Shown: piece after piece, positions 5,430-55,610 of the stretch
Numbering within the stretch: position 1 is the first letter of the stretch
How the letters are laid out: the number at the start of each line of letters is the position of its first letter
Assembly (NCBI GenBank): GCA_038214715.1
Contig: JBBQRP010000001.1
Location: forward strand, 131,646-195,645
Direction of reading: 5' to 3'
DNA: 64,000 nucleotides
Source: Thermoanaerobaculia bacterium
GTDB lineage: Bacteria; Acidobacteriota; Thermoanaerobaculia; UBA5066
Made by a program: the position numbers and the translations under genes
Notes under the pieces: model-generated
The model's database searches: none
What the model was told of the DNA's origin: nothing
What the model saw: only the letters and a program-made list of their open reading frames with translations

Positions 5430-7720
5430 GGGCGGCTCCGTCCCGCGAGCGCCACGCCCGCGAGGAGGACGACCGCCGCGATCGAGATCCCCGCTCCGAC
5501 GCGGAAGGCGGCGGGTCGATACGCGAGATCGAGCCGATGGGCCCCCGCGGGAAGGAGAATCGCCGAGAGAGCGAGGTCCGCGCGGAGGAGAGGAACGCGG
5601 GTCCCGTCGAGGCGCGCTTCCCAGCCGCGCGCATGCGTGCGGGTGAGAACGAGGTAGCCCGGTTCGGAGGACTCCGCGTCGACGGTCAGGTGCTCCGGAA
5701 CGTCCAGGGCGATACGAGCGACCGAGAACGTTCGCACCGGGCGGGCCGGAGGCATTGGGCCCGCCGGAGGCGCGAGAAACACGACCGCCTCGGGGTCGAG
5801 GTCCGGCTGCGCGAGGGCCCGAAAGGCCGTGTCGTCGTCCGCTTCCCGCGCCGATCGTGCGAAGAACACGCGCCCTAGCGCGCGCGGCAGGCCATAGAGG
5901 GAGACTCCCCCTTCCCGCCGTTCGAGCCGGGCGCCTCCAAGCGACAACGGGAAGGGCGACACGACGTGCCGCACGTCCGCGAGCGAGAGGATCGTCTCGG
6001 CGTTTCCTCCCGCGAGAGCCGCGCCGAGGAAACGCGTGAGCCGCGGATTACCGATGGGGGACGGACTGCTCGCGGAAGCGAGACCGAACGGCAGATTCGT
6101 GTAACCGGACAGCGCCGCGCGGGCGCGAGCGGAGGCCGCTCCTCCCCATTCGCCTCCCGTGGCGCGCGAAAGAGCGGCGAGCGCCTCACCGTCGGACGCG
6201 ATCGGAAAGAAACGTCCGGGAACGCCGGCGAGCGCGGCCGCAGCCGGAGGGGGACTGCCGGACGCCGAGGGGGTGAAGAGGGACGCGTTCGCGGCGAGGA
6301 GCGGAACGGTCACGAGGGCGAGGAGAAGCACACCCGACACCGCGGGGCCGGGCCGGCCGGTCCATCTCAGGGAGGCGAGGACGAGCAGCCCCGCCGCCGA
6401 CGCGAGAAGAGCCGCGAGGGCCGGCGCTCCCGATGCTCTCCCCCCGGCGATGCCGAGGGCCAGGAGGGCGACCGCCACCGACCCGAGGACGAAGAGCGGA
6501 CCCGTCCGCGCCGCCGCCGCCGCGGGCACGCGCGCGTCGGTTTCGGCGTCGAAACCCCGCGGCCACGCGAACAGCCTTCCGTATCGCCAGCCGTCCAGGC
6601 CGGCGCCCGCGAGAGCCGCGAGCGCAAAGAGCGTGAGGACGAACCACCGCGCGGGAAACCGCACGCCGCGGGCGATCCCGAGGTCCCAGAGGACCGGTAG
6701 GATTCCGCCGGCCGAACCCGCTGCAAGGAGGAACCCCAGCACCGCGAGGAGCGCGAGGGAGAGCAGGAGGCGCGGGCGCGACGCGAGGCCCGCGCCCGCC
6801 CCCGCCGCGAGAACGAGCGCGAGCGGCGAAAGCGCGAGCGTCGCGAGGTATCCGCCACGTCCGGAAGAAGGGTGTCTCGTACGGGCGTCTTCGGGCGGGA
6901 GGACGAGGTCGACGAGGTCCGACGATCCGACGGGCCGCGCGAGCGCTTCGGCGCGCGTGACACCCGTGAGGCGGCCGGACGATGCGACGTAGTCGAGAAA
7001 CGGAAGCGCCGCGGCGGCCACGAGAGCCACACCGAGGAGAAGCCCTCCTCCGACGCGCAGCCAGGGCCGCCGCGATCGGCCCGCCGCGAACTCCTCGCGC
7101 CGGCCGGTGAGCGCGAACAGGCAGGCACACCCGGCGCCCGCGACCGCGAGCGCGGGCTCGCCGCCGAGGAAGGACAGGGCGAAGGCGGCCGCGAACCCCG
7201 CAACGGTCCCGCCTCCCACCGTGGTCCGCGCGGCCGCGAAGAGCCACGGGAGGAACGCGGCCGTCTCGAAATTGTTGTAGACGAGGACGAGGGAGAGGAA
7301 GGCGCCGCCGGTCGCGTACGTCGCCGCCCCGAGAAGCGCGCCGGCCCGCGACGTTCCGACGCCGAAGAGCCACGCCGCCATTCCGGAAGCCGCGACGACG
7401 AGGTGGAGCGCGATGCTCGCGAGGGGGCCCCAGGCTCCCGGGAGCTGGAAAACGAGATCCAGAGGGTAGAAGACGCCGCTCTGGAGCTGTGCGAGCCAGG
7501 GCTCCCCGCACCCCGAGAGCGGATTCCACAGCGGAACGCCGGAATGCCAGCGCGCGGCCGTGTAGGCCTTCATCGGCCAGAAAAAATCTGCGAGGTCGCC
7601 GCGAGCCGGAACGCCGGAGGAAAGGACACTCGGGAAAAGGAAAACCGCCGCGCAAAAGAGCCCAAGGGCGCCGCCGAGGAGCGCCGTCCGTCCCGTCGTC
7701 CCGCGGCCTTGCACCGTCAC
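5426..7720 (-). CDS. Large polytopic membrane protein, YfhO-like, a putative GT-C-fold glycosyltransferase. This is paralog 1 of 3-4 in the window.
   Basis: N-terminal TM helix followed by the first-loop motif GDLADFFWPMKAY (compare DLPFFFYPLKAH in the 60899..62989 paralog). More than 12 TM helices. The C-terminal ~150 aa are homologous to the C-termini of the other paralogs (W.ARLDG..VPL.RAD...A). Start 7720 (GTG) is uncertain because a terminator lies only ~13 nt upstream. Confidence 0.7.
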   Translation of the reverse strand: MTVQGRGTTGRTALLGGALGLFCAAVFLFPSVLSSGVPARGDLADFFWPMKAYTAARWHSGVPLWNPLSGCGEPWLAQLQSGVFYPLDLVFQLPGAWGPLASIALHLVVAASGMAAWLFGVGTSRAGALLGAATYATGGAFLSLVLVYNNFETAAFLPWLFAAARTTVGGGTVAGFAAAFALSFLGGEPALAVAGAGCACLFALTGRREEFAAGRSRRPWLRVGGGLLLGVALVAAAALPFLDYVASSGRLTGVTRAEALARPVGSSDLVDLVLPPEDARTRHPSSGRGGYLATLALSPLALVLAAGAGAGLASRPRLLLSLALLAVLGFLLAAGSAGGILPVLWDLGIARGVRFPARWFVLTLFALAALAGAGLDGWRYGRLFAWPRGFDAETDARVPAAAAARTGPLFVLGSVAVALLALGIAGGRASGAPALAALLASAAGLLVLASLRWTGRPGPAVSGVLLLALVTVPLLAANASLFTPSASGSPPPAAAALAGVPGRFFPIASDGEALAALSRATGGEWGGAASARARAALSGYTNLPFGLASASSPSPIGNPRLTRFLGAALAGGNAETILSLADVRHVVSPFPLSLGGARLERREGGVSLYGLPRALGRVFFARSAREADDDTAFRALAQPDLDPEAVVFLAPPAGPMPPARPVRTFSVARIALDVPEHLTVDAESSEPGYLVLTRTHARGWEARLDGTRVPLLRADLALSAILLPAGAHRLDLAYRPAAFRVGAGISIAAVVLLAGVALAGRSRP

Positions 7721-10622: not shown

Positions 10623-12143
10623 ATGGTCCGTACCGCCCGCCAAGCCGGCGTGCTCCTGCACCCGACCTCGCTGCCTTCCCAGTTCGGCGTCGGCGATCTC
10701 GGCCCGGCCGCCGACGCGTTCCTCGACTGGGCGTCCGAGGCGGGACTCGCGCTCTGGCAAGTCCTGCCGGCGGGCCCGACGGGCCCGCACCATTCACCCT
10801 ACGACGGCCTCTCCGCGTTCGCGGGAAACCCTCTCCTGATCTCTCCCGAGTGGCTCGTCGAGGAGGGCCTCCTTCCGGCGGGAGCCCTCGACGGCGCCCC
10901 GGACTTTCCAGTGGGGCGCGTGGACTGGGAGCGCGTCCTTCCGTTCCGGCGGCGCCTTCTCGAAGAATCCTTTCGCCACGCGCGCTCCCTCGGCGCGAAG
11001 ATCGAAGGCGAGATCGCGCGCTTCGCGGGGGCGCCTTCGCAGGCCGCGTGGCTTCCGGATTGGGTGCTCTTCGCGGCCCTGCGTGAAAAGAACGAATCCC
11101 GCGCCTTCATGGAATGGGATCCGGCGCTCGCGCTCCGCGAGGAAACCGCCCTCGCGGCGGCACGGGTCGATCTCGCCGAGGCGATCGCGTTCCACACGTA
11201 CACGCAGTTCCTCTTCTTCCGACAGTGGCAGCGCGTGAAGGCCGCGGCGAACGCGCGCGGCATCTCCATACTCGGAGACGTACCCATTTACGTCGCCGGG
11301 GACAGCGCCGACGTCTGGGCTCACCGGCGGCTCTTCGCGCTCTCCGAGGACGGGCGGCCCACCGTCGTGGCCGGCGTTCCGCCCGACGACTTCAGCGCGG
11401 ATGGCCAGCGGTGGGGCCACCCCCTGTACCGGTGGGACGTCCTCGCCGAGGAGGGCTACGACTGGTGGATCGAGCGCATCCGGCTGAATCTCCGGCTCGC
11501 GGACGCCGTTCGGCTCGATCATTTCCGCGGATTCTCCACCTACTGGGAGGTGCCCGCGTCGGCGGCGACGGCCCGCGAGGGGCGGTGGGTGAACGGACCG
11601 GGGCTGATGCTCTTCATGGCCATCCAGCACGCGCTCGGCGACGTCGGCCTCGTGGCCGAGGACCTCGGCGTCCTCACGGACGACGTGAGGAGGCTCCTCG
11701 AGGTTCTCGGCCTCCCGGGCATGAAGGTCCTCCAGTTCGCCTTCGGCGAGCTCGACAGCGAACACCTTCCGCACCACCACGTTTCCAACAGCGTCGTCTA
11801 TACGGGCACACACGACAACGACACGACCCGCGCCTGGTTCGCGGCACTTCCCGAAGACGCGAGGGCGCGCTTTTGCGACTATCTCGGGACGCCCGGCGAG
11901 GACGCCGCCTGGGACCTCATCCGCGCGGCGTACGCGTCCGTAGCCGACCGCGCAGTCGTTCCGATGCAGGACATCCTCAATCTCGGCGCGGAAGGCCGGA
12001 TGAACGTGCCCGGCCGCACGGGCCAGAACTGGGACTGGCGCGCCGCGAAGGACGCGTTCTCGCCCGAGGTCGCGGGCCGCCTCCGGCGCCTCGCGACGCT
12101 GACGGGACGCGCGGCCTCTCCGGAGAGCGCTTCGAGGCCCTAG
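10623..12143 (+). CDS. malQ: 4-alpha-glucanotransferase (amylomaltase, GH77)
   Basis: N-terminal signature GVLLHPTSLPSQFGVGDLG, ~500 aa, with typical GH77 spacing of conserved Asp/Glu regions. Confidence 0.9.
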   Translation: MVRTARQAGVLLHPTSLPSQFGVGDLGPAADAFLDWASEAGLALWQVLPAGPTGPHHSPYDGLSAFAGNPLLISPEWLVEEGLLPAGALDGAPDFPVGRVDWERVLPFRRRLLEESFRHARSLGAKIEGEIARFAGAPSQAAWLPDWVLFAALREKNESRAFMEWDPALALREETALAAARVDLAEAIAFHTYTQFLFFRQWQRVKAAANARGISILGDVPIYVAGDSADVWAHRRLFALSEDGRPTVVAGVPPDDFSADGQRWGHPLYRWDVLAEEGYDWWIERIRLNLRLADAVRLDHFRGFSTYWEVPASAATAREGRWVNGPGLMLFMAIQHALGDVGLVAEDLGVLTDDVRRLLEVLGLPGMKVLQFAFGELDSEHLPHHHVSNSVVYTGTHDNDTTRAWFAALPEDARARFCDYLGTPGEDAAWDLIRAAYASVADRAVVPMQDILNLGAEGRMNVPGRTGQNWDWRAAKDAFSPEVAGRLRRLATLTGRAASPESASRP

Positions 12144-54201: not shown

Positions 54202-55008
54202 GTGAACGAGCTCACGGAGCTCGTCCTGCGCCACGGCGTCGGATTCGTCTTCCTGAACGTGCTCCTTCAGCAGCTCGGGATCCCCGTCCCGGCGGTCCCG
54301 ACGCTCCTCGTTGCCGGTGCGCTCGCGGCCGACGGAAAGCTGCCCTTCGGGATGCTCCTCGCCGCGGCGTTTTTCGCGACCGTCGCGGCGGACACGGTGT
54401 GGTTCCTGCTCGGCCGGCGCTACGGGCAGAGAGTCCTCAAGACGCTGTGCCGGATGTCCCTCTCTCCCGATTCATGCGTGCGTCAGACCGAGGGGCTGTT
54501 CGACAGCTGGGGTCTGACCTCGCTCCTGTTCGCGAAGTTCGTGCCGGGCTATTCCACGGTCGCGCCCCCCCTCGCGGGAGCCGCCGGCGCGACGCTGCCG
54601 AGGTTCCTCCTGTTCACGTCCGGCGGAACCTTCCTGTGGGCCGGGAGCGCGCTGACGCTCGGCCTCTTGTTCCATGGCACGATCGATCGCGTCCTGTCGT
54701 TCCTCGCGAGTCTCGGCAGCGGCGCCCTTTCGATCGTCGCCGGGGCGCTCGCCCTCTACATCGGCCTCAAGTGGGCGCAGCGCCGCCGCTTCTACCGGTT
54801 CCTCCGGATGGCGCGCATCCGGGTCGGAGATCTCCGGCGTCTCATGGACGAAGGCCAGTCGCCCCTGATCGTGGACGTGCGCTCGAGCAACGCGCGGGCG
54901 CGCGACACGCGTCGGATTCCTGGGGCGATCGTCGTGAACATCACGGAGCTGGACGAGAAGATCTCGCACCTGCCCACGGAGCGGGAGATCGTTCTCTACT
55001 GTACGTGA
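54202..55008 (+). CDS. DedA-family membrane protein fused to a rhodanese-like domain. The ORF stops at an in-frame TGA inside the rhodanese active-site loop (YCT*). See the continuation feature below.
   Basis: DedA core LLQQLGIPVPAVPTLLVAGALA. C-terminal rhodanese N-half PLIVDVRSSNARARDTRRIPGAIVVNI...EREIVLYC, then the TGA. Confidence 0.8.
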   Translation: MNELTELVLRHGVGFVFLNVLLQQLGIPVPAVPTLLVAGALAADGKLPFGMLLAAAFFATVAADTVWFLLGRRYGQRVLKTLCRMSLSPDSCVRQTEGLFDSWGLTSLLFAKFVPGYSTVAPPLAGAAGATLPRFLLFTSGGTFLWAGSALTLGLLFHGTIDRVLSFLASLGSGALSIVAGALALYIGLKWAQRRRFYRFLRMARIRVGDLRRLMDEGQSPLIVDVRSSNARARDTRRIPGAIVVNITELDEKISHLPTEREIVLYCT

Positions 55009-55176
55009 CCCAATGAAGCCTCGGCGGCCCGTGTGGCACGCCTTCTCATGGATCGCGGGTTCACCCTCGTGAGGCCTCTCGAGGGCGGTCTCGACGCGTG
55101 GGAGGAGGCCGGTTACGAAATCGAGGCGGACCGGATCCCGATCAGCCCCTCGGGATCATTCCCGCCCGCGCCCTGA
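55009..55176 (+). other. In-frame continuation of the rhodanese domain after the TGA (PNEASAARVARLLMDRGFTLVRPLEGGLDAWEEAGYEIE...). This is either read-through by selenocysteine, or a pseudogene remnant.
   Basis: Same frame as 54202..55008. The sequence aligns with the rhodanese C-half (..AA..L...GF.V..L.GG..AW...G) and loop length is preserved if TGA is decoded. A GC hairpin lies 15 nt downstream. Confidence 0.6.
55023..55042 (+). other. SECIS-like hairpin candidate immediately downstream of the in-frame TGA
   Basis: GGCGGCC-cgugu-GGC(A)CGCC. A 7-bp stem with a bulged A and a GU-containing apical loop, centred ~25 nt 3-prime of the UGA. Confidence 0.3.
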
Positions 55177-55199
55177 TTCACTCGAGGTGGATCTGGCCC

Positions 55200-55610
55200 T
55201 CAGGCCCGTTCCCAGATCTCGTCCACGACGACGTCCGGATGCAACGAGCGCCTCACGGGGCAGGTCTTCCCCGCGTGGACGAGTCTCTCGAAGTCGGCGT
55301 CGCCGCAGGGAGAGGAAATCCGGTACCGCGCGACGAGCCTCGCGATGCGACGGGGTGGGTCCTGCGTCATCTGCTTCTCGATCTCGAACGTCACGCCCGT
55401 CACGGGGATGCCGCAGCGCACCGCGTACAGGCTCAGAGTCGTCGTCGCGCACGCGCCAAGAGAGGCGGCGCAAAGATCCGTCGGAGAGAACCGGCTTCCA
55501 TCGCCGCCGTTGTCCTTCGGCGCCGTCGTGTCGATCAGCGCGCCGGAGGGGCCGTGCCGGAGTTCAGTGCCGGTCGGGGAGGAAAGTCTGCCGGAGATGA
55601 GGACGCTCAT
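55200..55610 (-). CDS. OsmC/Ohr-family peroxiredoxin-like protein
   Basis: Cys-pair region LCAASLGACATTTL and ...CGDADF. 136 aa. Confidence 0.85.
   Translation of the reverse strand: MSVLISGRLSSPTGTELRHGPSGALIDTTAPKDNGGDGSRFSPTDLCAASLGACATTTLSLYAVRCGIPVTGVTFEIEKQMTQDPPRRIARLVARYRISSPCGDADFERLVHAGKTCPVRRSLHPDVVVDEIWERA

Follow-up and report, generated by a model that had tools for sequence, protein, structure and literature searches.

The question raised by this locus is whether a TGA codon standing in the middle of a predicted active site ends a gene or is read as an amino acid. The codon lies in a stretch of 64,000 nucleotides from a Thermoanaerobaculia bacterium (Acidobacteriota; GenBank assembly GCA_038214715.1, contig JBBQRP010000001.1, positions 131,646 to 195,645 of the forward strand), which we call the window and within which frames, open reading frames (ORFs) and composition were analysed locally. 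An ORF of the plus strand (54202..55008) starts with a GTG at 54202 and runs for 268 codons up to ...TEREIVLYCT, where it meets the TGA at 55006-55008. The same frame then goes on for 55 further codons (PNEASAARVARLLMDRGFTLVRPLEGGLDAWEEAGYEIEADRIPISPSGSFPPAP), opening with PNEASAARVARLLMDRGFTLVRPLEGGLDAWEEAGYEIE, until a stop TGA at 55174-55176. Such an in-frame continuation is far beyond chance. An original prediction, made from the letters of the window, had seen in the two pieces a single DedA-rhodanese fusion and had proposed for the TGA either read-through with selenocysteine (Sec), or a nonsense mutation, or a sequencing error. From the comparison of sequences reported below, we conclude that the TGA at 55006-55008 very probably encodes Sec.

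We searched Pfam with the joined protein, in which a Cys was placed at the TGA. Two domains were found on the plus strand: a DedA/VTT membrane domain (PF09335; 54286..54663, residues 29-154; score 39.8 bits, cutoff 33.9) and a rhodanese domain (PF00581; 54829..55107, residues 210-302; score 51.3 bits, cutoff 22.2). The second match runs across the TGA, which confirms that the frame continuing after IVLYCT-TGA holds the remainder of a single-domain rhodanese. The catalytic Cys267 (TGT codon, 55000..55002, plus strand) stands at the end of the central beta strand; both it and Y266 are invariant in our alignments. By translation and Pfam content, the complete recoded coding sequence (54202..55176, plus strand) would comprise 324 codons, the UGA being counted as Sec269, plus the terminal TGA (55174..55176, plus strand), which the translation of the frame marks as the true stop. 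Homologs having a Cys at the site are full-length proteins of 310-335 amino acids which align end to end with its product. One of these Cys homologs, P0085, has the same residue numbering as the window protein, and we used its AlphaFold2 model (mean predicted local distance difference test score 82.9, with low confidence at residues 87-91). The model is all-helical up to residue 203, with a long helix at 172-203, and then adopts the rhodanese fold, where the strand 263-266, the loop C267-E272 and the helix 273-284 display the canonical six-residue rhodanese active-site loop. The length of the catalytic loop is preserved if the TGA stands for an amino acid, as had been stated. A Foldseek search with this model returned generic single-domain rhodaneses only (target-normalised template modelling score up to 0.87), and searches of the PDB by sequence and by fold gave distant generic rhodaneses only and no DedA structure.

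The codon itself was read in species-representative genomes, one per species. The scan gave 80 loci, and among these and the window the codon at the Sec position is readable in 79 cases (78 genomes and the window): it is TGA in 63, the window included, TGC or TGT in 16, and TAA or TAG in none. These counts are the basis on which we annotate the UGA at 55006..55008 (plus strand) as Sec269 in the loop C-T-U-P-N-E. The base following the TGA is a C in all TGA-bearing sequences. At the protein level, 86 of the best 120 clusters are exactly 268 amino acids long, with 63-100% identity to the query, and the seven of these clusters which we aligned all end in LYCT. More distant full-length relatives (310-335 residues) have LYCTCPNEASAA where the window has LYCT-TGA-PNEASAA; the alignment of LYCTCPNE with LYCT-TGA-PNE makes the residue at this site a Cys/Sec pair. 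The site is thus occupied by Cys (TGC or TGT) or by TGA, and never by Arg. An origin of the TGA from the Arg codon CGA, which had been suggested, is rejected, as homologs have Cys there. The TGA forms are present in genome bins labelled Thermoanaerobaculia, Rokubacteriota and betaproteobacteria.

A nonsense mutation private to this genome, which would make the gene a pseudogene, or a sequencing or assembly error would require nothing else than a single change of TGC or TGT to TGA, and the closest relatives of the window suggest that its source is a metagenome-assembled genome bin. However, 62 further loci, each assembled independently, have this very TGA, and 86 protein clusters stop at 268 amino acids. 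Moreover, the sequence downstream of the TGA is conserved as a protein. Downstream of the hairpin described below, the entropies at the first, second and third codon positions are 0.47, 0.48 and 1.37 in the TGA forms, against 0.41, 0.49 and 1.16 in the Cys forms; in both, variation is concentrated at third positions, which reveals purifying selection on the 3' tail. A private mutation or an error is so improbable in view of the 63 loci out of 79 and of this conserved tail that we exclude both.

A second explanation is that the TGA is a genuine stop. The protein would then be a DedA of 268 residues carrying a vestigial half rhodanese, and the tail would be either a separate small protein, started at the GTG at 55033, or the product of near-cognate (Trp or Cys) read-through. 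This is what gene callers and public annotation imply when they give a 268-residue "VTT domain-containing protein" and a separate ORF of 42-47 amino acids (55033-55176 in the window; 10847-10975 in both L083 and L084, two of the related loci). UGA followed by C is moreover known as a leaky termination context, and the machinery for Sec is not seen in the 64 kb of the window. However, a genuine stop would drift between TGA, TAA and TAG. The 63 genes with the internal TGA end with TGA in 42 cases, with TAA in 11 and with TAG in 10, which means that ordinary stops in these genomes do drift, yet the codon at the Sec position is TGA in 63 cases out of 63. Besides, the two pieces always lie in one frame, without any gap, and make up jointly one rhodanese fold of which neither half could fold alone: the small ORF of the public calls corresponds in fact to the last third of this domain. 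The homologs place a Cys exactly at the site of the TGA, the hairpin loop and the covarying stem reported below are kept only where the codon is TGA, and a related genome has a Sec-type selD beside the ortholog. Hence a true conserved stop appears very unlikely. An exact look-up of the 268-residue product of the window (P0001) returned no record.

Reassigned-UGA genetic codes exist in some bacteria, and one could suppose that UGA specifies a standard amino acid such as Trp or Gly throughout this genome. Against this, TGA is the stop of 22 of the 24 gene-like ORFs of the window, including the gene directly upstream, and a composition-based scan of the 64 kb found that the TGA at 55006 is the only one with convincing coding-like composition on both flanks. 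These results exclude such a reassignment. As TGA is a normal stop elsewhere in the window, the recoding at 55006 must be site-specific. The same scan for TGAs flanked by coding sequence found no second selenoprotein gene in the window.

The candidate signal for recoding this single UGA as Sec is a predicted bacterial Sec insertion sequence (SECIS) hairpin at 55023..55042 (plus strand), in which a stem of 7 bp, with A55038 bulged out, carries the apical loop CGUGU of 5 nt (55030-55034). It is the GC-rich bulged hairpin with a GU-containing loop which had been described, and folding of the region confirms it as the predicted minimum-energy structure, at -11.8 kcal/mol; it starts 14 nt past the UGA, and its loop starts 21 nt past the UGA. 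According to a 2026 review, bacterial SECIS elements (bSECIS) have a loop of 3-9 nt with a G within its first two nucleotides, most often with a G or U after it, an upper stem of 4-16 bp, a distance of 16-37 nt from UGA to loop and a minimum free energy of -7.5 kcal/mol or lower. The hairpin of the window fits all these constraints, with G-U at loop positions 2-3. It resembles the SECIS of E. coli fdhF in that it lies within the coding sequence immediately 3' of the UGA, exposes G-U in a small loop and fits the consensus. The two have no sequence similarity, the bulge of the window hairpin is on the 3' arm (A55038), and the role of SelB is in the window a predicted one. A scan of 54900-55200 against Rfam, with E up to 10, gave zero matches.

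Several results weigh against the decoding of this UGA as Sec. The stability of the hairpin is not significant at 69% GC, as compared with shuffled sequences (z = -0.04, -0.22 and -1.57 in windows of 71, 45 and 24 nt respectively). Some of the Cys forms also fold hairpins at the same place. They can do so because the Ala-Ala...Val-Ala codons are self-complementary, which means in turn that two central pairs of the stem are fixed by the coding and are uninformative. The loci are related to each other, and for this reason the counts of sequences reported here exceed the number of independent events. Neither selA, selB and selD (tblastn with E. coli SelA, SelB and SelD) nor a tRNA-Sec (ARAGORN) was found within the window; tblastn with the same three proteins on the flanks of the 80 related loci left 78 without any match, selD being found only in two (L045 and L052), and ARAGORN found no tRNA-Sec in 60 related loci. 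The gene neighbourhood gives no functional lead, as its arrangements are conserved within clades only. Finally, the chemical role that we propose further below for the residue is something we infer entirely.

As the stability is not significant and the Cys forms can also fold there, the argument for a SECIS rests on the conservation of the loop and on covariation. Covariation was analysed with RNAalifold and 500 shuffles on a gap-free alignment of the 63 TGA sequences (alignment A2), with a score which ignores phylogeny. RNAalifold recovered the upper stem from these sequences. Two pairs of the stem are informative, 27-33 and 24-36, both at synonymous third positions, and both covary. At 27-33, 56 sequences have C-G, 6 have G-C (mostly from bins labelled betaproteobacteria) and 1 has U-G. 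The pair 24-36 is G-C in 23 sequences, C-G in 21 and G-U in 6, and every one of the 21 sequences with a C in column 24 has a G in column 36. In the 13 sequences devoid of this pair, the window among them, G24 can pair with C37, column 36 being then bulged. Altogether, pairing is seen in 84% of the cells. The shuffles score 0.045 for covariation, and none of the 500 reaches the 0.164 of the real alignment, a score which is far lower when the register of the stem is slid. The identical structure imposed on the 16 Cys forms is paired at 50% and shows no excess of covariation. As for the loop, its Arg codon is CGT in 59 of the 63 Sec forms and CGG, the alternative which the consensus permits after the G, in the 4 others. 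CGT makes up 5.5% of the Arg codons in the genes of the window. The Cys forms are variable at this position, in the residue as well as in the codon. Together with the distribution of TGA and Cys among orthologs, the covariation and the conserved loop support the view, already held in the original prediction, that the hairpin directs read-through with Sec.

Two kinds of loci deserve mention in relation to the hairpin. In L019 (6802-6867), the codon at the Sec site is TGC (Cys) and the full SECIS-like sequence is kept (GCCGCCCGTGTGGCGCGC), identical to that of the TGA-bearing relatives L011 and L013. Judging by this sequence, L019 looks like a recent conversion of Sec to Cys. Six TGA forms (L041, L044, L050, L067, L069 and L078) share a variant SECIS in the 66-nt region at the TGA, in which Ser is encoded by AGC and the pair closing the loop is G-C instead of C-G. 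Their bins are mostly labelled betaproteobacteria, except for L050, labelled Streptomyces, and L078, labelled only "bacterium". This variant suggests an old origin or a horizontal transfer of the Sec form.

The two loci with a selD are both from Thermoanaerobaculia genomes. The gene lies about 1 kb downstream of the ortholog, at 7911-8948 in L045, which is part of a 6.6-Mb chromosome, and at 7913-8944 in L052. Both selD genes contain in turn an in-frame TGA, at the site corresponding to Cys17 of E. coli SelD (GG-TGA-ACK; 7938-7940 in L045). The presence of a Sec-type selD in these two genomes shows that Sec decoding operates in the lineage. The adjacency is seen in 2 of the 63 Sec-form loci only. 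In L045, a small ORF with a GGCDGC motif (about 7240-7440) lies between the DedA-rhodanese ortholog and selD.

If the UGA at 55006-55008 is decoded as Sec, the loop CGUGU of the hairpin would recruit SelB and Sec-tRNA(Sec) to the ribosome paused at UGA-C, and the remaining 55 codons would then finish the rhodanese fold. The product would be a single integral-membrane selenoprotein of 324 residues, in which a DedA/VTT domain at the N-terminus is joined by a basic linker to a single-domain rhodanese at the C-terminus. With too little selenium or SelB, ribosomes would terminate at the UGA and leave a DedA protein of 268 residues with a non-functional half rhodanese. In the complete protein, Sec269 would be position +2 of the six-residue loop C267-T-U269-P-N-E, ahead of the helix ASAARVARLL, and would form with Cys267 a Cys-x-Sec pair. 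Such a pair could carry or resolve a persulfide or a perselenide, or could cycle via a selenenylsulfide. The loop (T, P, N, E) has no basic residue and contains a Glu, which favours a redox or relay role over classical thiosulfate binding. We give about even chances to the pair being a redox or chalcogen-relay centre.

The domain which bears this pair is related to known selenoproteins. Its best match among NCBIfam models is NF041203, rhodanese_LYCAU, a "rhodanese-related (seleno)protein" (E = 1.9e-22, 105 of the 126 positions of the model), the score of 79.3 bits being below the cutoff of 115 bits. The Cys homolog P0085 scores 81.9 bits, and stand-alone rhodaneses with the motif YCTCPNE score 80.9 and 83.0 bits. 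Since even these stand-alone proteins reach only about 81-83 bits, the domain belongs to a sister subfamily of NF041203. A protein search with the domain only returned mostly fragments, plus a few stand-alone or single-helix-anchored YCTCPNE rhodaneses. Two reviews of selenoproteomes list a CxU rhodanese (rhodanese-like protein form 3, or COG0607 form 2) among predicted bacterial selenoproteins. The statement of the original prediction that rhodaneses count among reported selenoprotein families agrees with these lists. Its remark that a Sec located two residues past the catalytic Cys would be unusual needs correction, as this is the documented CxU motif of rhodanese_LYCAU and of form 3 (COG0607 form 2). 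The window protein has in common with this family the fold and the position of Sec in L-Y-C-x-U, two residues past the catalytic Cys. Like it, the family was predicted computationally, at first with bSECISearch, to be a bacterial selenoprotein, and has Cys-form homologs. It differs in that its members are soluble, stand-alone proteins of about 126 amino acids with the motif LYCAU, whereas here the domain is the C-terminal part of a polytopic membrane fusion of 324 amino acids with the loop C-T-U-P-N-E.

The fusion is itself known in Cys form: DedA (COG0586)-rhodanese proteins such as PA1209 of P. aeruginosa have the same architecture, with PF09335 at the N-terminus and PF00581 at the C-terminus, and so do the full-length Cys homologs carrying LYCTCPNEASAA; that PA1209 belongs to the present orthologous group is assumed from its architecture. 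The DedA literature treats the fusion as an ordinary Cys protein, uncharacterised and unexplained, and makes no mention of a Sec form, and neither of the two selenoproteome reviews mentions a DedA, VTT or SNARE-associated selenoprotein. Hence, while CxU rhodanese selenoproteins and Cys-form DedA-rhodanese fusions were already known, a DedA-fused, membrane-bound CxU rhodanese selenoprotein appears new. The mechanism of recoding would be the standard one, so that nothing here challenges current understanding or is mechanistically surprising. Reading the UGA as Sec would correct a systematic annotation error: in 62 species-representative genomes and 86 protein clusters, as a minimum, the gene is called as a "VTT domain-containing/DedA" protein of 268 residues, with an orphan ORF of about 42 amino acids beside it. 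It would also extend the known bacterial selenoproteins by a form which is fused to DedA and integral to the membrane. Dozens of species of soil bacteria have retained this TGA, which points to the use of Sec in bins from soil whose labels are Thermoanaerobaculia (Acidobacteriota), Rokubacteriota and betaproteobacteria. The Cys-x-Sec centre at the active site of the fusion points to redox or chalcogen-transfer chemistry at the membrane, and the residues U269, C267, C83 and C92 offer experimental handles on the function of DedA-rhodanese proteins.

The last two of these residues form a Cys pair, C83-x8-C92 (LCRMSLSPDSC; LCRMSLSPDSCVRQTE), in a loop of the DedA domain (54448..54477, plus strand, with codons at 54448-54450 and 54475-54477). 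Both are invariant in the Sec and Cys forms of the fusion (alignments A1, A4 and A5), and E. coli DedA does not have the pair. According to these alignments, the pair is specific to the fusion subfamily. It may be a second thiol centre cooperating with C267 and U269, and it hints at a thiol relay between the DedA and rhodanese domains. After the last membrane helix comes a strongly basic linker (KWAQRRRFYRFLRMARIRV; 54769..54825, plus strand). By the positive-inside rule, the basic residues of KWAQRRRFYRFLRMARIR suggest that the rhodanese domain is in the cytoplasm, where it would lie beside the DedA-type transporter domain.

The window protein shares the PF09335 domain with the undecaprenyl-phosphate flippases of the DedA family (UptA, YghB/YqjA). 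Its alignment with E. coli DedA covers the conserved motifs GR..G and F.PG..T.AP..AG. All the flippase equivalog models score far below their cutoffs with the window protein: 27.6 bits for a cutoff of 250 (NF052604), 18.2 for 300 (NF052605) and 37.4 for 236 (NF008102). One could also imagine that the Sec form of DedA-rhodanese is a module for the acquisition of selenium, whose DedA domain would bring selenite or a related chalcogen species into the cell, and whose cytoplasmic Cys-x-Sec rhodanese would capture it, reduce it to a protein-bound perselenide and pass it to SelD; the C83/C92 pair would perhaps also take part. We consider this quite unlikely. It is compatible with the location, in two genomes, of selD about 1 kb past the ortholog, and a DedA protein has reportedly been linked to selenite resistance, in an older report cited in the DedA literature. 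Also compatible with such a module is the statement of a review that prokaryotes have no known selenium transporter which is both specific and of high affinity.

As to the neighbouring genes, a divergent operon (ECF sigma factor, anti-sigma factor and HEAT-repeat protein) lies 0.1-2 kb upstream of the Sec-form gene in L045 (3229-6001) and in about 25 other loci of one large Thermoanaerobaculia clade (for example L012, L021, L023, L028 and L040); the window is without it. Directly upstream of the fusion gene, the window has a DUF179/AlgH-like gene (PF02622; 53640..54200, plus strand), whose TGA stop ends 1 nt before the GTG at 54202. With this spacing, the two genes are probably co-transcribed. 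Directly downstream, an OsmC-like gene (55200-55610, minus strand) is convergent and has ordinary Cys codons; OsmC-like proteins are listed as a selenoprotein family for other organisms. The order DUF179, DedA-rhodanese, OsmC is common to close relatives only.

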